From IMG/VR virus record IMGVR_UViG_3300032307_000723, positions 32,001 to 96,000 of that record: DNA of 64,000 nucleotides; one strand, 5' to 3'. This stretch comes from a virus. Numbering within the stretch: position 1 is the stretch's first letter; each line of letters opens with the position of its first letter. Made by a program: the position numbers and the translations under genes. Below are positions 9,124-45,405 of this stretch, piece after piece. Below the pieces are notes generated by a model. That model was not told where the DNA came from and searched no databases. It saw nothing but the letters and a program-made list of their open reading frames with translations.

Positions 9124-11430
9124 ATGGCTAAAAATATATTAATAGTACCGAGTAATACAATTGCCCCTCAACCGGACAATATTCCTTATATTGATTTTGA
9201 GAACACTGGTTTAATCAAATTGAATGTTCGAGGTAATGGTGATATTGTATTTAGTAGCGCAACAGAAGATGAAGTACTTTTTATTAATGATAAGCAAGTA
9301 AAAACTGGAAATAATCTTAATGTAAAAGATTATTTTGCTGTTAACGGTACTCAAGTTATAAATGGTACAGGGAATTGGATTGGTCCGACAACTAATATTG
9401 CGGGTGCTCAAGGTCCTACGGGTGCGAAAGGGACTACAGGTGATGGAGGTGCAACGGGAAACACCGGTGCTCCGGGTGCTAATAGTGCGGTTTCAGGTGC
9501 TCCGGGTCCAACAGGCCCTACCGGTTCTCAAGGTCCAATAGGAAATAATGGAATTTCGGGTTCCACAGGTTCTATCGGTTCAACAGGACCAACAGGACCC
9601 AAAGGTTCTCAAGGAGCTACGGGTAATATAGGTTCACAAGGTCCAAAGGGGCCTCAAGGTTCTCAAGGACCAAAAGGGGCGACGGGACCAACCGGTAGTG
9701 CAGGGGCGACTGGTGATGCAGGACCTACAGGACCAAAAGGTTCTGTTGGAACAACAGGTGATGGAGGTGCTTCTACAGGATTTCCGGGATTTCCCGGACC
9801 ACAAGGTTCCCAAGGTTCTCAAGGAGTGCAAGGTTCTCAAGGGGCAACAGGAAATACAGGTGCTCAAGGACCTACAGGTGCTCAAGGTGCGACAGGTAAT
9901 ACAGGTGCCCAAGGAATTATTGGACCACAGGGTGCTCAAGGACTACAAGGTGCTCAAGGTGCGACAGGTAATACAGGTGCTCTTGGACCACAAGGAAACA
10001 CTGGTGCGACAGGATTTATAGGACCCACAGGTAATACAGGTGCTCAAGGACCTACGGGTGGTACAGGTGCTGCCGGCCCACAAGGAGCGACAGGAAATAC
10101 AGGAGCGGTAGGTCCAACAGGTAATACAGGATTTACAGGACCTACGGGTAATCCGGGGGCGACGGGACATACAGGTGCCCAAGGTCCACAAGGTCTACAA
10201 GGTGCTCAAGGGACTACAGGTCCTGTGGGTACTCAAGGAAGTAAAGGTCCACAAGGACCACAAGGAACTCAAGGTTCACAAGGTGCAACAGGATTTGTTG
10301 GACCTACCGGACCTACCGGACCCCAAGGATTACAAGGTTCTCAGGGAGCAACAGGAGAGAAAGGGCCAACTGGTGCCCAAGGTCCAAAAGGATTTACAGG
10401 GCCAACAGGACCCACCGGTAATACCGGAGCCCAAGGGCCTACAGGTCCTCAAGGTGCCCAAGGTCCTACAGGTGCAACAGGACCTGCCGGAGCTCAAGGG
10501 TCTCAAGGGGCGGTAGGAAATACGGGTGCTCAAGGAACTAAAGGTCCTCAAGGTCCTCAAGGTGCTCAAGGGGGTGCAGGTCCTCAAGGTGCACAAGGAG
10601 GTCAAGGTTCTCAAGGTTCTCAAGGTGGTCAAGGTTCTCAAGGTGCTCAAGGTGGTCAAGGTTCTCAAGGGGCTCCAAGACTTGGACCCCAAGGAAATCA
10701 AGGAGCTCCAGGTCCAGCAGGTGCTACAGGTGCTCAAGGTCCTCTAGGGGCTCAAGGAGCGACACAACCTACAGGCCCTCAAGGTGCCCAAGGTGCTCAA
10801 GGGTCTCAAGGGGCTTCAGGTACTGCGGCGGCTACTTGTACAACGGCTACATTAAATTATTGGAATGATTGTAGTGAACCGTGTGCCGGTTTTAAAGGGG
10901 GTACTATCACTTATTATCAACAAACAGGTTCAGGTGACCCTTATCCAACTTATAAATTTAGAACCCTTTCAAACTGTCAGAATAGTACGTGTGATTGGAA
11001 TACATATATACCAGTATCAGGGGCTAGAAACTTTTTTTGTACAATTTTAGACCCTGATTGTGGGTTTTTTGTTAACCAATATGATTGTTTTGCCTATTCG
11101 GATGTTAAACTTAAAGATGGTATAGAAACACTTGAAGGTGCGTTAGAAAACATTATGAAAATTAATGCGGTTGAATATGATTGGAATGAAAAATTAGGTC
11201 CTGACAGATATCAATTTTATTTAAATCAAGATAAATTACATACAATCGGTTTGATTGCTCAAAATGTTAGATTATATTATCCTGAAGCCGTAAGAATGAA
11301 TGATGATGGGTATTACTCTGTCGACTATCAAAAATTAAATTCAGTCTTAATTGAGGGTATCAAAGATTTACAATATGAGATAGATGAAATGGATAAAGAA
11401 CTAAACAAAATTGAATTAATACTTAGTTAA
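9124..11430 (+). CDS. Collagen-like fibre protein 1 with Cys-rich domain and S74-type chaperone
   Basis: Long Gly-X-Y tract, ~90 aa Cys-rich segment, then SDVKLKDGI...INAVEYDW...IGLIAQ...YSVDY. Confidence 0.88.
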
Positions 11431-13496
11431 TGGCGAATATTATTATATACCCACAAGGTAATGTTGGAAATACCGACCCTAACATAATTTTTGATGATGG
11501 GTCATCTAAGTTGCAATTTAATGTTAAGAATGGTTTCTTATCTCTATCGTCATCAACAATTAGTGATGGTGTTAATATCGGTCCTCAAAATGTTGTGGTT
11601 TCAGGTACTTCAATTACAGGACCAAGTGCTTCATTAGTTGTAGGTGGGGTTCAAATGATTAATAGTTCAGCCGTATGGGTTGGACCTCCTGAACCATTAA
11701 TAGGTTTCCAAGGTGCTCAAGGTGCTCAGGGAGCTAAAGGTAATACAGGTGCTCAAGGTGCTCAAGGTGCTCAAGGTCCCGTAGGGGCTCAAGGTTTTCA
11801 AGGTTTTACAGGACCTACAGGGTTTGTCGGACCACAAGGACCTCAAGGAGCGCAAGGAGCTCAAGGGTTTCAAGGTTCCACCGGACCAACAGGTGATACC
11901 GGAGTTCAAGGTGCTCAGGGTTCTGCGGGATTTACAGGGCCAACAGGAATTCCGGGAGAGGTTGGACCAACAGGTGATGCTGGTCTTACAGGTGCCCAAG
12001 GTTCTCAAGGTTCTCAAGGACCTACAGGTAATACAGGTGCTCAAGGGGCTAAAGGTCCACAGGGTGCTCAAGGACCTCAAGGAGCACAGGGGCCAAAAGG
12101 ATTTGTTGGACCTACAGGACCTACAGGACCACAAGGTAGTCAAGGTGCACAAGGTGTGAATGCCGGTGCCACAGGTCCACAAGGGTCTCAAGGTCCACAA
12201 GGGTCTCAAGGACCTACAAGTGGTGTTCAAGGTTCCCAAGGAGGTCAAGGTGCTCAAGGTTCCCAAGGTGCTCAAGGTGCTCAAGGTGCTGTTCAAGGTG
12301 CCCAAGGTTCTCAAGGTGCCCAAGGTTCCCAAGGTGCTCAAGGAGCTAATAGTAGTGTCCAAGGTGCTCAAGGTTCCCAAGGTGCTCAAGGTTCTCAAGG
12401 GGGTCAAGGTGCACAAGGTGCGGTTCAAGGTGCTCAAGGTGCTCAAGGTGTTCAAGGTGCTCAAGGTTCCCAAGGTGCTCAAGGTGCAAATGCAGGTGCT
12501 ACAGGACCTCAAGGTGCCCAAGGAGGACCAGGTGCTCCGGGTGCTCCCGGTACAAATTCCGTAGTTTCAGGTGCTCCGGGTCCAACAGGTCCTACCGGTG
12601 CTCAAGGAGCTCAGGGTGCAACACAAGGTGCACCTGGATTTACAGGACCTACAGGTAGCCAAGGTTCTCAAGGGGCGGGTAGTATTATTATGGGGGCAAC
12701 CGGACCACAAGGTTCTCAAGGGGCAACAGGTAATACAGGTGCTCAAGGTGCAAACGCTGGTGCACCGGGAGTTCCAGGTCCAACCGGAGCACAAGGTGCC
12801 CAAGGACCCGCAACCGCTCCCGGACCACAAGGTTTTCAAGGAAATCAAGGTGCCCAAGGAAACGTAGGAGTCGGTGGTGCTCCGGGTCCATCAGGTACCG
12901 TAGGACCACAAGGTGCTCAAGGGCCTAAAGGACCACAAGGTGCTCAAGGTCCTAAAGGGCCACAAGGTGCTCAAGGTCCTAAAGGACCACAAGGTGCTCA
13001 AAGTGCTCCGGGAGCTTCGGGGGCACAAGGAGCAACAGGTCCTCAAGGAGTGCAAGGTTCTCAAGGGCCACAAGGTTCCCAAGGTGCTCAAGGAGAACTT
13101 AGACAAGGTTCTCAAGGTTCACAAGGAGGTCAAGGGGCTCAAGGTGCTCCATCCGATAAAAGATTAAAAGATAATATAACACCAATGGTAAATGTTTTAG
13201 AGAAAACAACCCAAATTAAAGGTGTTATATTTGAATGGGATAGAGAACATAAAAAAATTAAAGATAATAAATCAATTGTATTCCAAGAGGCTTTCTCAGG
13301 TGATTCAATTGGCTTTATTGCTCAAGATTTAGAAAAAGTGGTACCTGAAATGGTATTTACGGATGATGAAGGTTGGAAAAGTGTTAGTTATGGTCAAATG
13401 GTTAGTTTAGGTATTGGAGGGATTCAAGAACAAAAAAGAAGAGTTGACTCAATATATGAAAGAATAAATAAATTAAAACAAATTACAGGTGTCTGA
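11430..13496 (+). CDS. Collagen-like fibre protein 2 with S74-type chaperone
   Basis: Gly-X-Y tract runs directly into [10 protein letters not shown]...IKGVIFEW...GFIAQDLE. Confidence 0.88.
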
Positions 13497-15504
13497 GAAT
13501 ATTATAATAACCCCGGGTAGTGGTACAATTGATTTTAATAGTTCACTTGGAATAGATACTATTTTTATTATAGAATCTGGTTCGTTAAAATTCAAACGAA
13601 GTACTACCACAATTTTCACTATTGATAACACTTATCCTAACTTTAGAGTGAGTACTAATGATGGATTATATGTTATTAACACTTTTATTAATAATTATGG
13701 TTCTTTAATTAATTCTACAGGATGGTTAGGAAATAGACAGCCAACAGGTGCTCAAGGTTCACAAGGTGCGGTCGGTTCACAAGGTGCTCAAGGTTCACAA
13801 GGTGCCGGTGGGGCTCAAGGTAATATTGGTCCACAAGGACCACAAGGACCACAGGGGTCACAAGGTGCAACAGGTCCACAAGGTTCTCAAGGACCTAAAG
13901 GTTCTCAAGGAGCGCAAGGAGTTCAAGGTTCTCAAGGTGCTCAAGGAGACCAAGGACCACAAGGACCACAAGGGCCACAAGGATTTCAAGGTTCTCAAGG
14001 TGCAAAAGGTGCTCAAGGTCCACAAGGGTCTCAAGGTTCGACAGGACCTACCGGAGGTCAAGGACCACAAGGTTCTCAAGGTGCCCAAGGAGGACAAGGT
14101 GCTCAAGGATTAACACCTGGTTCCACGGGTCCACAGGGTCCTCAGGGGGATACAGGTGCTACGGGTCCAAAAGGTGATACCGGGCCAATAGGAGGACAAG
14201 GTTCTCAGGGTGCAACAGGTGCAACAGGTGCAACAGGCCCAGCAGGAGCGACAGGTGCTCAAGGGACAACAGGTCCTACAGGCCCAAAAGGTAATACAGG
14301 TCCAACAGGTCCAACGGGTGCTCAAGGTACTCAGGGTGCAACAGGACCTACCGGAGGTACAGGGCCTCAAGGTTCTCAAGGTGCTGCGGGAGCTCAAGGT
14401 CCGAAAGGTCCAAATGGTCCAACAGGTGCCCAAGGACCTACCGGAGGTCAAGGTTCTCAAGGTTCTAAAGGACCAACCGGACCAACCGGACCTATCGGAC
14501 CAACAGGAGGACAAGGTTCTCAAGGTTTTACAGGATTTGATGGGAATGGAGGTTCACAAGGTGCTCAAGGAGCTGTCGGTGCACAAGGATTCCAAGGTTT
14601 TACAGGTCCTCCGGGGTTCGTTGGGCCAACAGGAGGACAAGGTGCTCAAGGTTCTCAAGGGCCAACAGGTCCAAAAGGAGACCAAGGACCAACAGGTCCA
14701 CAAGGTTCTCAAGGTGCAACAGGACCACAAGGTTCTCAAGGGGCACAAGGTTCTCAAGGAGGACAGGGGTCACAAGGAGCAGCAGGAACGGTTCAAGGTG
14801 CTCAAGGTCTTCAAGGTCCTAAAGGACCAAGTGGTCCTGACGGGGCTGGAGGTTCACAAGGTGCTCAAGGAGATGTCGGTGCACAAGGATTCCAAGGGCC
14901 AACAGGTTTTCCTTCTGTGTCTCCAGGGTCCCCAGGTGCTGCGGGAACTGTACAAGGGGCTCAAGGTGCTGCGGGAACTGTTCAAGGGTCTCAAGGTAAT
15001 CCCGGAGGGGTTCAAGGTGCTCAAGGTGCTGGACCACAAGGTGCTCAAGGTTCTCAAGGTGCGGGTCCAAAAGGAGCTCAAGGAGCCTCAGGGGCACAAG
15101 GTTCTCAAGGAGCTAAAGGTCCATTAGGACCAACAGGTGCTCAAGGTGCTACAGGAGCACAAGGTGCTACTCCATCTGATAGTAGAATGAAAAAAAATAT
15201 TAGACCAATTGAAGATTCATTAGAAAAAGTTTTGAAAATGAGAGGGGTTTCATTTATTTGGAATAAAAATGAAATAACACCAAATTACGGGAAAGACATT
15301 GGATTTATAGCACAAGAAGTTGCCCACGTATTACCTGAATTAGTTTTTAAAAGTAGTAAAGAAAATTCTCACTTTCAGGTTAAATATAATGATGTAATCG
15401 CCCTTTGTTTGGAGGCGATTAAAGAACAATCAAGGTTGATTGATTTAAAAGAAGAAAGATTAGAAAGGTTAGAAAATAAAGCAAAAGAAAAGGGACTTGT
15501 TTAA
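13489..15504 (+). CDS. Collagen-like fibre protein 3 with S74-type chaperone
   Basis: GTG start; Gly-X-Y tract runs directly into [10 protein letters not shown]...MRGVSFIW...GFIAQEV. Confidence 0.88.
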
Positions 15505-24624: not shown

Positions 24625-26028
24625 ATGAAAAAACTAATAAAAGAAAGTGGTATCAGGGACATAAAAAAATTGTCCCAACGATACCCTAAAGCCGAAATAT
24701 ATTTTCACCAAGATTTAGATGGGGTTACCACGGCAATTGCAATGAAGAAATACCTTGAAGATAATGGTATTAATGTTGTGGATGCTCACGTTATTCAATA
24801 TGGGGATAAAGAGTTCTCTGTAAAGAAGAATGATGCTCAAGGTGACACTATGCCGGTCTTAGTTGATTTTGCTCACGGAAAACCAATGTTTGTTATCCAT
24901 ACAGACCATCACGATAGACAAGCAGGTGCTGAAGATACTAAATCAACTTCTTTTAGACAATCTCGTTCAAATGTTGAAACAATTTCTCAAATAGTTTCAC
25001 CGAAAGAATTGTTTCCTTCTTCTGATATCTTACTAATATCAACCGTGGACTCAGCGGACTTTGCGAAACATGACATCTCACCTGATGAGGTTGTGAATTA
25101 TTTGTTTAGATTTGATAAAGAGAAACCATTACAGAGAAACAAAATGTTATTGGGGTTTGTTGTTAACAAACTCATATTGGCGTTCAAAAACAAACCGGGA
25201 TTTTTAGAAGGTTTAGTTATGAATTCGGAGCCATCATTAATGTCTATCCTTACAAATATTAAGGAATGGATGACAAAAACAAATGCCGTTAAACCGGAAC
25301 TATTACAAAAAAATGCAGAAGACTATAAAACATCGATGCAAGGATATCCAAATGTCAGCGACAACATTATCTTCCAATATGGTGGGGGTAGCATGTTCAA
25401 GCCTGGGTCTTATGATAGATACACCCCATTTAGAAATAATCCTGAAGCAGACTTTCTTATTATGGCGTGGCCATTGGGTCTTGTTCAAGCATCTTGTAAC
25501 CCATTCAAGAAAGAACGAGAACTTAAAGGGGTTAACTTGGGTGAAATTGCCCAAGAAGTTTTATCGAAATGGGAGGACCAATTAAAAACTAGGGATATAC
25601 CTTTATCAACTATCAAATGGGTAAGTGAGACAGGGGTAGGTCCTGAGAGCGTTGGGTTCACATTTAAAGATTTCAAAGCATTATATGGGGATAAGTTTAA
25701 ATCGATTGATAATGGAGAAAAAGCGTTGAAACACATTCAACAAATGATGGAAGTTCCATTTTCAGAATTGAGTGAAGAACATCGAGCAATGTTGGATAAG
25801 ATTACCATCAATGCTTGGGAATTGATTCAGGCTAATTCAGGAGGTCACAAATGTATTACGAATATTTCAGGGTTGAATTATCTTGGAAGAAGTACTCGAC
25901 CACCAAAAGGAAGTCATCGATATAATGAATCAGATGATTCACCGACAGTGAAGTTCACAAAAATGATTGCAGGTCAATTACAAAAAGTATTAAAAGAGAA
26001 AATACAACAATCGAAGGGTGATAATTAG
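24625..26028 (+). CDS. DHH-family phosphoesterase-like protein
   Basis: FHQDLDG, VLVDF, HTDHH, STVDSAD, GGH motifs. Confidence 0.7.
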   Translation: MKKLIKESGIRDIKKLSQRYPKAEIYFHQDLDGVTTAIAMKKYLEDNGINVVDAHVIQYGDKEFSVKKNDAQGDTMPVLVDFAHGKPMFVIHTDHHDRQAGAEDTKSTSFRQSRSNVETISQIVSPKELFPSSDILLISTVDSADFAKHDISPDEVVNYLFRFDKEKPLQRNKMLLGFVVNKLILAFKNKPGFLEGLVMNSEPSLMSILTNIKEWMTKTNAVKPELLQKNAEDYKTSMQGYPNVSDNIIFQYGGGSMFKPGSYDRYTPFRNNPEADFLIMAWPLGLVQASCNPFKKERELKGVNLGEIAQEVLSKWEDQLKTRDIPLSTIKWVSETGVGPESVGFTFKDFKALYGDKFKSIDNGEKALKHIQQMMEVPFSELSEEHRAMLDKITINAWELIQANSGGHKCITNISGLNYLGRSTRPPKGSHRYNESDDSPTVKFTKMIAGQLQKVLKEKIQQSKGDN

Positions 26029-26372
26029 AATAAGTATTCTATAACATCACCCGCTTCGATGTTTAAAAATTCACAAGTACCACCTTCAAGTTCGAGTACG
26101 ATATTACCGTTACCACAATAACTTGGACATTCTTCACTTTCACATGGTGGACAATTATGGTGGATATTTACGATAACATTATTACGGATAATAATAATAT
26201 CCAAAGGGATGATACAATTCTTCATCCAAAAACATTGTTTGTTACCTCCCATTAGGAATAACAAACCTTCGAAAGATTTGTCAAACGTTTTTCCCATCAT
26301 GCCAATGGCTTGGGAGCTCTTATCAGTAAGAGTTTTGACTTTGAAAATATTTTGATTAATTTTAACATTCAT
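26025..26372 (-). CDS. DUF192-family protein
   Basis: GMM...GLLF...FWMKNCIIPLDIIII...VLELEGG. Confidence 0.82.
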   Translation of the reverse strand: MNVKINQNIFKVKTLTDKSSQAIGMMGKTFDKSFEGLLFLMGGNKQCFWMKNCIIPLDIIIIRNNVIVNIHHNCPPCESEECPSYCGNGNIVLELEGGTCEFLNIEAGDVIEYLF

Positions 26373-26384
26373 AACAATAAATAT

Positions 26385-26807
26385 ATGGGAATTAAAAGGT
26401 ATGTCGGAGTTTTAGTAAAATGTGGTAATAAAGTTTTACTATGTAAGAGAAACGCTAAGGGTCCATATCCAGGTATGTGGTCATTACCCGGTGGTCATCT
26501 TGAAAAAAATGAGACCACCTTGGATTGTGCAAAGAGAGAATTCTTTGAGGAAACTGATATAGATATTGATGATATGGATTTAACTTTCGTTGGTGTTGTC
26601 CCAAGAACAAGTCGTGATGGAAGAGAAATTAGAGGGATTATGTATGTTTATCAATTGGATGTGGATAAAGAATTGGAGCCTGACTTAGATAACGCTATGG
26701 ATGGTGAAGAACATACTGATTGGGAATACTTTACCAGTAATCAGGTGAAACCGGAGAAGACCGGAGTGAAACTACACAAACTCATTACACACGTAATGGA
26801 AAAATAA
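26385..26807 (+). CDS. NUDIX hydrolase
   Basis: WSLPGGHLEKNETTLDCAKREFFEETDI Nudix box; ATG at 26385. Confidence 0.88.
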   Translation: MGIKRYVGVLVKCGNKVLLCKRNAKGPYPGMWSLPGGHLEKNETTLDCAKREFFEETDIDIDDMDLTFVGVVPRTSRDGREIRGIMYVYQLDVDKELEPDLDNAMDGEEHTDWEYFTSNQVKPEKTGVKLHKLITHVMEK

Positions 26808-26870: not shown

Positions 26871-27125
26871 ATGGCTAAAGAGAAATTATACAGAAGTGTT
26901 TACGGAGAATACCTTTATCTATTTAATTGGATTGGTGGGGGATTTAATGATGTTTGGGCTCCGAGTAAGAGAGAGGCATATGCCAAGGTCATGAGAGAAC
27001 AAAAAGTTCACGAAAAGAAATATCCAACACACGTTAAGTTGAGACCTGATTATAAGTCAATGAGAAAATGTACTTATTCTCAGTATCAAGCACAAAACCG
27101 AATGGGTTGGATGATGAGTATGTAA
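26871..27125 (+). CDS. Hypothetical protein
   Basis: ATG at 26871 downstream of TAnnTTTG box 26842-26849. Confidence 0.65.
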   Translation: MAKEKLYRSVYGEYLYLFNWIGGGFNDVWAPSKREAYAKVMREQKVHEKKYPTHVKLRPDYKSMRKCTYSQYQAQNRMGWMMSM

Positions 27126-27280
27126 AAACTACTTGAGTAAGCGGGAGTGGTCAATCAACAACCCGAAGAAGGTTCAGGTAAAACTATATTTAAAAGAGGA
27201 CGGCCGAGCCTATAATAGAGTAAGTAGGAAGTTAATGTTTTTTAGGAAGATTGAGTCAGTTTTTAACATTAACGAAACAT

Positions 27281-27382
27281 AGTCAGGAGACCATTGGTTG
27301 GTATCACCTCCCCAAGGTTGAGTAACGGTAAGGCCGACTCTTTATGGCAAAGACGGAACAGGTTCGAATCCTGTCCTGACTA
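27281..27382 (+). ncRNA. Atypical tRNA-like RNA with enlarged core (102 nt)
   Basis: Acceptor AGTCAGG/CCTGACT, canonical T arm ACAGG-TTCGAAT-CCTGT, D-like arm ACC-ATTGGTT-GGT; no canonical anticodon loop; ~36 nt extra region; no encoded CCA. Confidence 0.75.
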
Positions 27383-27536
27383 CAAATTAAAAAAAAAATA
27401 ACAAAGGTATTGACTTTTGGTGATGTTAGGAGATATTTATATTCTCACGGTTCGAGAGAACCAAAACACCCCAACAAAAGTTTCATAAAAAATTTGGTAG
27501 TATCAAAACTATTACTTACCTTTGTGAAACATATAT

Positions 27537-27585
27537 CCCACAGATGTATGTTCGAGAGAATTTATGTGTGTGGGTTTTTTTTTTC
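27537..27585 (+). terminator. Hairpin with GAGA tetraloop followed by T-run
   Basis: CCCACA/TGTGGG outer stem, TTC-GAGA-GAA apex, long T-run. Confidence 0.55.
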
Positions 27586-27629
27586 AAAAAAAAAGTGTTA
27601 AAGTTTTTGACAAATCAAAATAAATGTTT

Positions 27630-27637
27630 TACCTTTG
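27630..27637 (+). promoter_or_regulatory. Bacteroidota-type -7 box driving the tRNA-like RNA cluster
   Basis: TACCTTTG with upstream TTTTTGACA. Confidence 0.65.
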
Positions 27638-27675
27638 TCGAAGAAATAAAGTTCATAAAAATATTGAAAGATTGG

Positions 27676-27748
27676 TGTGGGTGTCGTGTCGAGGTTTCAA
27701 ATCCCTCCGGATTTATCCGTAGCTCAGGTGGTAGAGCATACACCCACA
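27676..27748 (+). ncRNA. Circularly permuted tRNA-like RNA (YrlA/Y-RNA-like architecture)
   Basis: Order: stem strand TGTGGGTGT, V loop, T arm GAGG(T)TTCAAAT(C)CCTC, closed acceptor hairpin CGGAT-TT-ATCCG, TA-GCTC-AGGTGGTA-GAGC D arm, complementary strand ACACCCACA. Confidence 0.75.
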
Positions 27749-27759
27749 TTTTTTTATAT

Positions 27760-27834
27760 GACTACGATAGCTCAGCGGGTAGAGCAATCATTGGGAACAA
27801 TGGTGTGCCGGTGGTTCGATTCCATCTCTAGTCA
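27760..27834 (+). ncRNA. tRNA-like RNA with GNRA tetraloop in place of anticodon loop
   Basis: GACTA(C)GA/TCTAGTC acceptor with bulge, TA-GCTC-AGCGGGTA-GAGC D arm, ATCATTG-GGAA-CAATGGT arm, GGTGG-TTCGATT-CCATC T arm. Confidence 0.78.
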
Positions 27835-27846
27835 CAAATAGATTAC

Positions 27847-27964
27847 TCTGTGATAAGATAGCAGATAGACCTATTACAGCAGACTATCCCGACGGGAGTG
27901 CGAGTTTTAGGTAGTAAAGAATGGGTGACCTACGAATTTGTAAATCTTAAGGTCTTATCACAGA
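27847..27964 (+). ncRNA. Unidentified structured RNA (~118 nt)
   Basis: 12-bp closing stem TCTGTGATAAGA/TCTTATCACAGA; inner TCCC/GGGA and TAGGT/ACCTA stems; no ORF. Confidence 0.55.
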
Positions 27965-27990
27965 TTAAAAAAAAAAGTTTTATAGAGTTC

Positions 27991-28018
27991 TTGACAAATA
28001 GAAATTATGTGTTATACT
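27991..28018 (+). promoter_or_regulatory. Promoter for the large ncRNA
   Basis: TTGACA-16 nt-TATACT with TG extension. Confidence 0.7.
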
Positions 28019-28029
28019 TATAAAACAAA

Positions 28030-28910
28030 TTAGGGAAACCTAATACGTTCTTAGAAATTTTAGATTATCCATATAGTACTTCGGTATTATAAAAACGATA
28101 ATGGGTGGTATATCATCCTTAAATAAACCGGGAAACCGGGATAAAGTGAATCTGTTGTGTTGACAGGTTTGCGGTCTCAGAAATGGGACTCGAGTATACA
28201 AGTCGGATATCACCTGACCTTCAGTATTGAGGGCAACGCTTTAGAGAAAGTGGTTGGGTGACCGGGCGATGTGGGTCGTCAGGTTGAGGAGGGAACTCCA
28301 ATAAGAATAACCGATAGGAACCAAACAAGAAATTAGGTCATCCAACTTAGTAATTGTGGGTTCCAATATCAGAGAGGACTTAAAACCGAAAGGTATGATA
28401 GAGAACGAGTGGTGTCGCTACTATCCTTACAAAACATCTACCAAGGTGTCAGTTTGAAGTAATCTTAAAATATGAGAGTGGGGACACTCTACCGAGTAGA
28501 TTAGTATTTTGTTGTTCAAAAGATAACGAAGCTTACGACAGACCTCTACTTGGACACATCCACGACACATTTAACTTATAGGATATTTTAAGTAAAACTA
28601 AAAGATACATAAGCAAAAGTGTCTGTCAGGTATCATCGACAAGGTGACTACATAGTAACGAGCCGTTCGTTGCACAGGATGACCGCAAGTCTGAATGTAT
28701 TCTTACGAAAAACCTCTAAGGAGTCGAATCCCGAGTCAGTCCGCAAGATTGAAGAGAGTTGAATAATAAGAGAGTAGATGATATCTCAAGGAGTAATTGG
28801 TCTAACCAATTGTCACTGAGAATTACCATTCAAAAGATGGTGGAAAAGAAGGGAAACTATAATCCTTCCGAAGATTCTTAATAACACGAGTATTCTCATC
28901 GTATTAGCCA
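28030..28910 (+). ncRNA. GOLLD-like large structured RNA (~0.88 kb)
   Basis: No ORF, raised GC, many tetraloop hairpins (TATAGTAC-TTCG-GTATTATA, CCGG-GAAA-CCGG, GTCTCA-GAAA-TGGGAC, GGAG-GGAA-CTCC, ACC-GAAA-GGT, GAGTG-GGGA-CACTC, two GCAA loops); 3' region GAGTAG..TCTCAAGGAGT..GTCACTGAG..TCAAAAG..GAAGGG..AATCCTTC recalls GOLLD; adjacent to tRNA-like genes; own promoter and terminator. Confidence 0.7.
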
Positions 28911-28912
28911 AA

Positions 28913-28945
28913 GAGGTGTTACATTAATTTGTAACACCTTTTTTT
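28913..28945 (+). terminator. Intrinsic terminator ending the large ncRNA
   Basis: AGGTGTTACA/TGTAACACCT stem plus T-run. Confidence 0.8.
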
Positions 28946-28977
28946 GTTTATATGAATTTTTATATTATATTTGCATC

Positions 28978-29259
28978 ATGAGAAAAGTAAAAACAAAAGA
29001 TTCGGAAAGAATCTATACCGGACAATTTCGTAAAAAAAGAGTATTATCAATCTTTCCATTTATTATTATGGATGGAATAAAAAGTGATTTCCATTGGACC
29101 GGAAAATGGTTCCAATATGTTACGGTCAAACAACAAAAGATAAAAGACCGTTATTTGGAGTTCAATGAAGGGAATTACCAAAATTATTGGGGTAAATGGG
29201 AGACAACTTGGGTTTTTACCAAAATTATGAAAAATGAACAAGTCAATAAACATTATTAA
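28978..29259 (+). CDS. Hypothetical protein
   Basis: 93 aa ORF behind TATATTTG box 28966-28973. Confidence 0.65.
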   Translation: MRKVKTKDSERIYTGQFRKKRVLSIFPFIIMDGIKSDFHWTGKWFQYVTVKQQKIKDRYLEFNEGNYQNYWGKWETTWVFTKIMKNEQVNKHY

Positions 29260-29671
29260 TAAGAAAGCCAGATTTGAATATGAATTTCTACAGACTGAGA
29301 TTTGCGGTATTCAATTGGTAGGTTCTGAGGTTAAGTCAATCCGTCAGGGAAAAGTATCCATATCTGAAGGGTATTGTTATTTCAAAGATGGTGAGTTATT
29401 CGTAAAGGGTATGAATATATCTGACTACGGGTTTGGTTCATTTCATGAGACCGTTAGGGACCGTAAGTTATTATTAAAACGAAAAGAGTTGAATGAATTG
29501 GAATCAAAACTTATCAACGGACTTACCATTGTTCCTCATAGAGTGTTTCTTAATGGTAAAGGATTGATTAAAATGGAGATTGTTCTTGCTAAAGGTAAAA
29601 AGATTCACGATAAAAGAGAAAGTATTAAATCTCGAGACATTGACCGGGATATGAAAAGAGTTCAACTATGA
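29234..29671 (+). CDS. smpB: SsrA-binding protein SmpB
   Basis: NKKARFEY, GIQLVGSEVKSIR, RDRKLLL, LTIVP, KMEIVLAKGKKIHDKRESIK. Confidence 0.93.
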   Translation: MNKSINIINKKARFEYEFLQTEICGIQLVGSEVKSIRQGKVSISEGYCYFKDGELFVKGMNISDYGFGSFHETVRDRKLLLKRKELNELESKLINGLTIVPHRVFLNGKGLIKMEIVLAKGKKIHDKRESIKSRDIDRDMKRVQL

Positions 29672-44673: not shown

Positions 44674-45405
44674 ATGTTTAAATTTTACGAAGTCGGAGGG
44701 AAAGTTAGGGATGAGATTTTAGGTCTTGAGTCTAAGGATGTGGATTATGTTGCGGTTCCAAGTGACAAATTACTTCAGGACTTTGACACTGCGGAATCAA
44801 TGTTCTCAATGTTGGAACAATATTTAAGAGATGAGAAGTTTGAAATCTTTTTAGTTACCGCAGATTGTTTTACAATTAGAGCTAAGTTCCCAAAAGACCA
44901 CAAGTATAGTGGTGTCGCAGACTTTGTTATGGCTCGAAAAGAGATTGGATATATCGAAGGTACAAGAACACCAATCGTTAAACCGGGGACATTATATGAT
45001 GACCTTGAGAGAAGGGATTTTACCTTGAATGCATTGGCAAAAGATGAAGATGGGAAAATCATCGACTTCTTCAACGGACTTGAAGATTTGAAGAATAAGT
45101 ATTTGATAACTCCATTACCAATTCATCAGACATTTAATGACGACCCTCTTAGAATTTTGAGGGCAATTAGATTCTCAATTACAAAAGGATTTACAATTCC
45201 TATGAGAATGGCACTTGTCATAGAATCGTACAACTACGATGAAAAGATGGGTGTTGTTTCAACAGAAAGAATTAGAGAGGAATTATTCAAGTGTTTTAAA
45301 CATGACACTTTGGAAACATTAAAAGTTCTTAATGAATTTCCATTACTGAAAAATTACATCTTCAAGGATAAAGGATTATGGTTAAAACCAACAATGGAGC
45401 AATAA
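44674..45405 (+). CDS. tRNA nucleotidyltransferase / poly(A) polymerase family (CCA-adding-like, compact)
   Basis: VGGKVRD, KDVDY, DLERRDFTLNA, FNDDPLRILRAIRF, ERIREE. Confidence 0.88.
   Translation: MFKFYEVGGKVRDEILGLESKDVDYVAVPSDKLLQDFDTAESMFSMLEQYLRDEKFEIFLVTADCFTIRAKFPKDHKYSGVADFVMARKEIGYIEGTRTPIVKPGTLYDDLERRDFTLNALAKDEDGKIIDFFNGLEDLKNKYLITPLPIHQTFNDDPLRILRAIRFSITKGFTIPMRMALVIESYNYDEKMGVVSTERIREELFKCFKHDTLETLKVLNEFPLLKNYIFKDKGLWLKPTMEQ

Follow-up and report, generated by a model that had tools for sequence, protein, structure and literature searches.

A tRNA-shaped gene that lacks an ordinary anticodon loop raises the question of whether it is a gene at all and, if so, what it could be for. 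The case considered here lies in a stretch of 64,000 nt (the window) taken from an IMG/VR record of 117,613 bases (CheckV completeness 40%), which covers part of the ~300-kb genome of a giant freshwater (jumbo) phage. ARAGORN called one gene, at 27760-27835 on the + strand, and returned it as 'tRNA-???' with a 4-nt 'anticodon' (ggaa). Neither the window nor the rest of the 117.6-kb record gave any other tRNA call. The earlier note on this locus had described the same gene as a tRNA whose anticodon loop is replaced by a GNRA tetraloop.

Fold and parts of the tRNA-like gene

The Rfam tRNA model (RF00005) recognised the element by a narrow margin (30.2 bits against a gathering score of 29), and its ViennaRNA minimum-energy fold was a cloverleaf. 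The parts are as follows.

27760..27835 (+): tRNA-like gene of tRNA-Phe descent, 76 nt including A73 (27834) and the next C (27835); from ARAGORN, the Rfam tRNA model, the cloverleaf fold, synteny with a 91-nt homologue and the Phe type of the nearest tRNAs
27760..27767 (+): acceptor 5′ strand, 8 nt, with C27765 bulged; from the fold, the bulge being also present in contig L161
27770..27785 (+): D arm with a normal 8-nt loop, AGCGGGTA (G18 G19, U20, A21); from the sequence and the fold
27787..27804 (+): 18-nt anticodon arm, a 5-bp stem (ATCAT/ATGGT) with the 8-nt loop TGGGAACA (27792-27799); from the fold, the 8-nt length being common to syntenic relatives
27795..27797 (+): the triplet GAA (Phe anticodon), occupying positions 4-6 of the loop; invariant in the family described below
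27805..27826 (+): variable loop GTGCC (5 nt) and T arm (GGTGG / TTCGATT / CCATC); from comparison with tRNA-array members
27827..27833 (+): acceptor 3′ strand; from the fold

In the acceptor stem, G27760-A27764 and G27766-A27767 paired with 27827-27833 to give seven pairs, leaving C27765 out. The anticodon loop can zip, with T27792-A27799 and G27793-C27798 forming around GGAA (27794-27797), and the zipped arm of the minimum-energy fold consisted of seven contiguous pairs capped by these four bases. The window copy therefore has the G-N-R-A sequence, the Watson-Crick closure and the helix of a GNRA hairpin. The architecture proposed from the letters alone, namely canonical D arm, variable loop and T arm, an 18-nt anticodon arm of 7 bp under a GGAA cap and a bulged C in the acceptor stem, was thus recovered in full. 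The nucleotides that make tertiary contacts in tRNA were also present (U8, A14, G18 G19, T54-A58, C56 and the Levitt pair 15:48). A73 was present and CCA was not encoded, and the D loop was without the 14-19-nt hairpin found in relatives. The fold energy was by itself not significant (z = -1.44, 18/200 shuffles equally stable), as is usual for tRNAs. The reality of the element is, in our assessment, a matter of comparative evidence and not of fold energy.

An independent copy and syntenic homologues

Metagenome contigs were scanned for the D arm plus the 18-nt arm of the element. This recovered a second copy on contig L161 (Ga0105104_10182939), from another metagenome, with 98.8% identity over 168 nt, upstream neighbour included. 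The L161 copy has the same bulged C, and its 8-nt loop (TGGGAACC) differs from that of the window by one base, a change that breaks the seventh pair (T-A) and retains the G-C pair and GGAA.

Relatives were reached through the SmpB gene that lies 1.4 kb downstream (PF01668 search, 74 loci). A GOLLD RNA was found just upstream of SmpB in all 12 of the relatives' loci that were scanned with Rfam. Moreover, 29 related jumbo-phage loci contained a tRNA-like of 91-93 nt, on the same strand and 580-1100 nt upstream of the conserved GOLLD domain. Searching with the element alone (nhmmer) gave only marginal matches in relatives, and homology was therefore argued from synteny. When the window was compared with its closest relative (L008), 27586-27759 matched at 94% and 27833-28998 at 79%, and the slot between these flanks was occupied by the 91-nt homologue in L008 and by the tRNA-like in the window. 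The syntenic homologues have the 18-nt arm and an 8-nt loop (e.g. AACGAAAG, CCCGAAAG, TCTGAAAA), and carry an extra hairpin in the D loop. As MAFFT misplaced the window copy relative to the 91-nt forms, the sequences were parsed part by part. Across 18 distinct syntenic homologues, 97.4% of cloverleaf cells were paired and 10 pairs had changed on both sides; none of 500 shuffles did as well (0/500), and slid controls were 44-53% paired.

These data bear on whether the element could be an assembly error or a tRNA-Phe pseudogene in decay, for which one could cite the Rfam score barely over threshold, the failure of ARAGORN to assign an isotype and the irregular acceptor stem. However, the same gene occurs in an independent contig, the acceptor, anticodon and T stems show compensatory changes across relatives, and the tertiary-interaction nucleotides are all intact. 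The same slot is filled in the 29 related loci, and random indels or broken stems were not seen in the relatives. This explanation, already disfavoured, is scarcely credible. The earlier note had suggested that the structure was selected rather than a product of random decay, and had named a sequencing error, or one recent insertion into a normal 7-nt loop still present in close relatives, as what would speak against it. The conserved, intact tRNA shape and its covariation bear out the first view. Because L161 carries the same gene and the syntenic relatives have 8-nt loops, neither a sequencing error nor a recent accident is the origin of the element.

Blastn of 27300-28950 against 50,697 GenBank phages gave three weak partial matches, none over the element. 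The exact 18-mer of the anticodon arm was found at five loci in IMG/VR (L003-L007), all of them chance matches inside coding sequence. A model built from the 91-nt relatives (R1) was rejected as proof of kinship, with the window copy scoring 42.7 bits and a genuine tRNA-Met 51. Lastly, D-loop hairpins of 14-19 nt, some of them capped by UUCG, are inserted at the same point in several distinct Phe-like lineages (L144, L105, L092, L119 and the 91-nt clade, e.g. L019 1152-1243).

Phe ancestry and the anticodon loop across the family

To place the tRNA body, the element was compared with 232 distinct ARAGORN tRNAs from phage loci, those of 70-80 nt being scored. The closest were 76-nt Phe-like sequences with 8-nt loops, followed by canonical tRNA-Phe. 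The variable loop and T arm were identical (22/22) to those of three members found in tRNA arrays (L148, L150, L152), and matched a fourth (L123) at 21/22 positions. Judged by GAA, A73 and the Phe-type body, the scaffold is of the tRNA-Phe lineage. The main identity elements for PheRS are G34, A35 and A36; the element also has A73, U20, G44, U45, U59 and U60, which we take to be identity elements of the E. coli enzyme. It is like canonical bacterial and phage tRNA-Phe(GAA) in its D arm, GTGYC variable loop, TTCGAnn T loop, A73 and GAA. It is unlike canonical tRNA-Phe in its 8-nt, U33-less, zippable loop, in the C at the position-37 equivalent and in the bulged acceptor C.

IMG/VR was scanned for the family with the pattern GGTAGAGCA, 18 nt, GTGYC, 5 nt, TTCGA, which gave 79 loci. 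Removing ordinary tRNAs with an extra base elsewhere, and adding the window copy and L161, left 43 distinct sequences with 8-nt loops. GAA occupied loop positions 4-6 in 43/43, a figure to be read with the 8-nt length and GAA as partly ascertained, since outside the syntenic clade the pattern fixed the 18-nt arm and the Phe-like scaffold. Position 7 was A in 39/43, and positions 1-3 and 8 varied freely. The stems were maintained (206/215 cells paired in the anticodon stem, 207/215 in the T stem), with stem sequences almost wholly different among members. A U directly 5′ of GAA, in the place of U33, was seen in 9/43 and was absent from the other 34, window copy included. By comparison, of 184 ordinary tRNAs (distinct sequences) taken from these phage loci as a control, 179 (97%) have U33 and 182 have a purine at position 37. 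Across the family all four letters are found just 5′ of GAA, and there is no conserved quadruplet.

In the family a length of 76 nt, with one additional base where the T and acceptor stems meet, is common, and many of these members sit inside large tRNA arrays. The arrays of L094, L107 and L152 also hold a normal, 74-nt tRNA-Phe, as does the array of the complete 309-kb relative G001. No canonical tRNA-Phe was called in the main arrays examined of two further complete relatives (G002 and G004). The canonical scaffold with a 17-nt arm is itself common in IMG/VR (>112 loci). A scan of cellular genomes (one each from 185,579 bacterial and archaeal species) for the same scaffold with an 18-nt arm gave 30 matches, and every GAA-bearing one keeps CTGAA, that is, U33. 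In the collections searched the U33-less form is thus phage-only. The literature that could be searched gave no account of tRNA-Phe derivatives that form a conserved family in which the loop has 8 nt, U33 is lost and GAA does not vary.

Could such a gene nevertheless be a working tRNA-Phe with an expanded loop, either a nuclease-resistant spare that reads UUC/UUU or a +1 frameshift decoder of the quadruplet UUCC? The invariant GAA, the A that mostly follows it, A73 and the Phe-type body are all in keeping with this, as are the position of many members within tRNA arrays and the lack of a canonical tRNA-Phe call in the G002 and G004 arrays. In known +1 suppressors U33 and a purine at 37 are retained, and the extra base lies in or 3′ of the anticodon. 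The family shares with them an anticodon loop one nucleotide larger, and tRNAs with 8-nt loops can function (SufB2, 10.1101/2020.12.31.424971). Unlike these suppressors, however, the family has its extra base 5′ of GAA, has mostly lost U33 and leaves the flanking bases free, the fourth base being A, C, G or U. Phage tRNAs with altered anticodon loops evade host anticodon nucleases (PMC10264068; PMC11555353); PMC10264068 speaks neither of U33 or position 33 nor of loop size or insertions. Like these tRNAs, the element is a phage-encoded paralogue that departs from the host type chiefly in its anticodon loop. Nuclease-escaping phage tRNAs reportedly keep 7-nt loops and still decode, and we know of no nuclease specific for tRNA-Phe.

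A decoding tRNA has a 7-nt loop with U33 and a purine at 37, whereas the window loop has 8 nt, with G before GAA and C after it. The rarity of U33 against its near-universal presence in ordinary tRNAs of the same loci, the sequestration of the window loop in a 7-bp helix, the missing quadruplet, the bulged acceptor stem and the canonical tRNA-Phe alongside in L094, L107, L152 and G001 all count against a decoding role, which we consider quite improbable. On account of the 8-nt loop, the loss of U33 and R37, the zipped helix, the acceptor bulge and the normal tRNA-Phe that co-exists in several relatives, the element should not decode normally. In G002 and G004 a decoding role may apply, because their main arrays lack a canonical tRNA-Phe and because GAA with the next A is also what a decoding tRNA-Phe keeps.

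We also asked how far the GNRA cap extends through the family. The pair N3:N8, which would close a GAAA tetraloop, could form in 30/43 members, compared with ~41% expected from base composition, and in members from tRNA arrays these bases were G.A, C.A or A.A. In the clade linked to GOLLD the closing pair was CG in 13, UA in 3, UG in 1 and other in 1, although RNAalifold did not predict it there. In the window copy, in L161 and in L092 position 7 is C or G instead of A, and GGAA forms one register earlier. Because GAA is found in 43/43 and the closing pair is possible in only 30, the GNRA cap does not appear to define the family. The family-wide invariant is, on this comparison, GAA(A) rather than a closed GNRA cap, and closure would be a trait of the window copy and the GOLLD-linked clade. 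The claim that a GNRA tetraloop has replaced the anticodon loop therefore stands in part: the canonical loop is gone, but the loop TGG-GAA-CA retains the Phe anticodon, and closure is typical only of the GOLLD-linked clade.

Further ARAGORN '???' calls with 2-nt or 4-nt 'anticodons' were seen at L094 6679, L107 10374 and 10477, L127 3232, L152 6462, L157 7994 and 8550, L144 4754 and L087 9458. Such calls occur in jumbo-phage arrays, so loops of other than 7 nt are found outside the Phe-like gene too. A leader that is structured and conserved in the tRNA-array clade (…GGGAAACTCG…CGAGAG…, GTTGAC…GTCAAC) lies ~100 nt upstream of the Phe-like gene (L085, L088, L117, L127, L148, L157), and L127 also has a freshwater-1 RNA (RF02979) at 1101-1162.

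The RNA neighbourhood and possible roles

The element is one of several structured RNAs in a non-coding block of the window. The features around it are as follows.

27607..27635 (+): likely promoter of the unit (TTGACA, 17 nt, TACCTT), assigned as the sole + strand promoter-like site before the tRNA-like and because the same TTGACA...TACCTTTGT motif recurs upstream of GOLLD in relatives
27664..27760 (+): YrlA-like permuted tRNA mimic, core 27676-27748; Rfam YrlA (RF02553) 38 bits, E 4e-6, below the gathering score of 69
27847-27964 (+): 118-nt module, then an A-run, downstream of the tRNA-like
27991-28018 (+): strong GOLLD promoter (TTGACA, 16 nt, TGnTATACT), 11/12 matches, extended -10
27991-28950 (+): full GOLLD unit including the variable 5′ domain
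28492-28902 (+): GOLLD 3′ domain, Rfam 304.8 bits
28910-28943 (+): GOLLD terminator, 14-bp stem
29234-29671 (+): SmpB gene, 162 bits

The YrlA-like RNA lies 4 nt upstream of the tRNA-like in the window, and a spacer of 4-12 nt is found in most relatives. The tandem is conserved in L012, L028 and L037, and in L008 and L014 with a gap of ~140 nt. On the + strand of the window there was no promoter-like site between the two RNAs, and the T-run that separates them is not conserved, relatives having other A/U-rich spacers. Because of these two observations we infer that the YrlA-like RNA and the tRNA-like form one transcript. The tRNA-like domain of YrlA, a bacterial Y RNA, is a non-decoding tRNA mimic (RF02553; Chen et al. 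PMC4201824). The element differs from it in that it is not permuted, has open acceptor ends and an anticodon arm, and does not match RF02553; the weak YrlA match covers the upstream neighbour (27664-27760) instead.

This arrangement could be taken to mean that the element is a processing handle only, a form of tRNA punctuation whose shape recruits RNase P and RNase Z to free the YrlA-like RNA upstream and the 118-nt module downstream, with the anticodon arm irrelevant. The absence of a promoter of its own, the short spacer after the YrlA-like RNA, the interchangeable small RNA modules downstream and the acceptor and T arms as the best conserved parts are consistent with such a role. tRNA-like processing signals are known from MALAT1 (mascRNA) and from the stable RNAs species 1 and 2 in the T4 tRNA cluster. 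The element is like these in having a tRNA shape without a decoding loop in a non-coding transcript, presumably cut by RNase P and RNase Z. However, mascRNA and the T4 species preserve no specific anticodon triplet, and processing of the element is itself presumed. A handle alone leaves unexplained the invariance of GAA amid complete turnover of the anticodon stem, the fixed 18-nt arm of the syntenic clade and the same loop in array members flanked by ordinary tRNAs. We consider it decidedly improbable.

What separates the tRNA-like from the GOLLD promoter is a patchwork of small structured modules that replace one another in relatives, among them the 118-nt module (CTGTGATAAG...CTTATCACAG), one with a T-arm-like GTTGGTTCGATTCCAAC and one with GGATGGAACTACGAATTT. 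Such modules were also seen in L161 (189-305, reverse strand), which has two of them in tandem, and downstream of the tRNA-like in L083, L093 and others.

The element ends at 27835, ~150 nt before the GOLLD promoter, and because it lies upstream of that promoter it is beside GOLLD and not inside the GOLLD transcript or linker. Islands of tRNAs have been described around GOLLD, and tRNAs within its linker; a Met-tRNA lies upstream of the env-38 GOLLD, and mycobacterial GOLLD contains a tRNA-Phe or a pseudo-tRNA (Kretsch et al. 10.1101/2024.12.08.627333; PMC12990946; Behra et al. PMC6582537). As a tRNA-shaped gene next to GOLLD in a phage, the element is like these GOLLD-associated tRNAs and pseudo-tRNAs, but unlike those of the J13/15 linker it is upstream of GOLLD's own promoter.

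The closeness of GOLLD invites the idea that the element is a GNRA docking module, in which a closed GGAA or GAAA cap docks in a receptor in GOLLD or another neighbouring RNA, and the tRNA-like is a ligand or cargo of the GOLLD nanocage. A tRNA-Phe would have been recruited since its loop, CU-GAAA-A, already has GAAA. In its favour, 42/43 members can present GAAA (39) or GGAA (3: the window copy, L161 and L092), the closing pair is mostly CG in the GOLLD-linked clade, and that clade keeps its same-strand position 580-1100 nt upstream of the GOLLD 3′ domain. Moreover, the window copy has a thermodynamically solid 7-bp helix under GGAA, GOLLD cages use tetraloop-receptor contacts, and tRNA cargo has been proposed for them. 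Against it stand the restriction of a pairable N3:N8 to 30/43 members, the mismatches of array members and the failure of RNAalifold to predict the pair. The N and R of GNRA are invariant, which resembles a read-out of sequence more than a generic tetraloop. The 11-nt GAAA receptor (CCUAAG...UAUGG) was not found in 27100-29000. In addition, 6-mers complementary to the loop occurred in GOLLD at chance level and did not covary with it, and the GOLLD hairpin that they touch was identical in loci with different loops. Finally, as GOLLD has its own promoter, it and the tRNA-like would not be one RNA. Taken together, we regard docking as unlikely.

We lean towards reading the element as a conserved mimic of tRNA-Phe that undergoes tRNA-type processing but does not decode, and in which GAA is retained for recognition by a partner, for instance PheRS, a nuclease or an RNA. 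A partner that reads GAA is called for because the triplet survives full turnover of the surrounding stem and loop. The mimic would be transcribed from the 27607-27635 promoter jointly with the YrlA-like RNA, cut by RNase P at 27759/27760 and trimmed by RNase Z or a 3′ exonuclease after A27834. CCA would then be added by a CCA-adding enzyme, for which the phage has a candidate, a short (243 aa) PolyA_pol/CCA-type nucleotidyltransferase at 44674-45405 (+), 17 kb downstream of the non-coding block. Since the tRNA body is under selection, the element most plausibly meets the tRNA-handling enzymes (RNase P, RNase Z, the CCA-adding enzyme and modification enzymes). GAA would be the handle by which a reader of the Phe anticodon recognises the element. 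For this reader PheRS is the simplest candidate, with a host anticodon-directed nuclease (a decoy role) or an RNA partner as alternatives. The acceptor bulge might impair the processing and charging that this model assumes. Neither PheRS (PF01409), an L/F-transferase (PF03588) nor another enzyme that uses Phe-tRNA was found in the 117-kb record (~40% complete).

A bolder form of the mimic reading, which we hold to be unlikely, would have a dedicated, non-decoding tRNA-Phe mimic present GAA on a rigid or closed arm and act with the YrlA-like mimic, the long-arm tRNA-like described below and the GOLLD nanocage. It would serve the cage as cargo or ligand, or else act as a sponge or decoy that occupies a host factor recognising the Phe anticodon (either PheRS or some anticodon nuclease not yet known). 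If true, this would give GOLLD its first defined RNA partner. GOLLD is among the largest bacterial and phage RNAs and forms nanocages, and the company of tRNAs is the only recurring clue to its role. In a clade of ~300-kb phages, a tRNA-Phe derivative sits between a Y-RNA-like mimic and GOLLD, which turns a vague association into concrete questions: whether the element is excised, receives a CCA tail, is charged with Phe, binds GOLLD or protects from tRNA-directed defence. More generally, 'tRNA-???' calls in phage tRNA arrays can be conserved genes and not junk.

The neighbouring SmpB gene raised the candidate of a tmRNA tRNA-like domain, which was rejected as the element has a full anticodon arm and C3:G70, not G3:U70. 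In most relatives scanned a tmRNA lies on the opposite strand, 0.5-2 kb downstream of SmpB (e.g. L018 6918-7312). The 117-kb record (~40% complete) gave no tmRNA match at E <= 1, and in the window a DUF6734 gene follows SmpB where most scanned relatives have the tmRNA.

Several further features of the window were recorded. A third tRNA-shaped RNA of ~102 nt lies at 27281-27383 (+), with 17.4 bits to the Rfam tRNA model and 18.5 bits to R1. It is of a second recurring class (AGTCAGG...CCTGACTAC acceptor, long extra arm) that was also seen at L008 2122 and 3718, L033 2223 and L038 806. The 1.9-kb non-coding block contains 13 GNRA-capped hairpins. Two hairpins of the GGTTC-GAGA-GAACC type, with GAGA tetraloops, are found at 27450-27467 and 27550-27565 (+), the latter inside a terminator-like stem followed by a T-run. 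Just upstream of the block, 24625-26807 (+) encodes a DHH-family phosphoesterase-like protein (weak, 24 bits) and a NUDIX hydrolase. Lastly, 9600-14760 (-) contains long runs of TTGAGAACCTTGAGCACC-like 9-nt periodic repeats, which suggests a collagen-like (Gly-X-Y) repeat protein.
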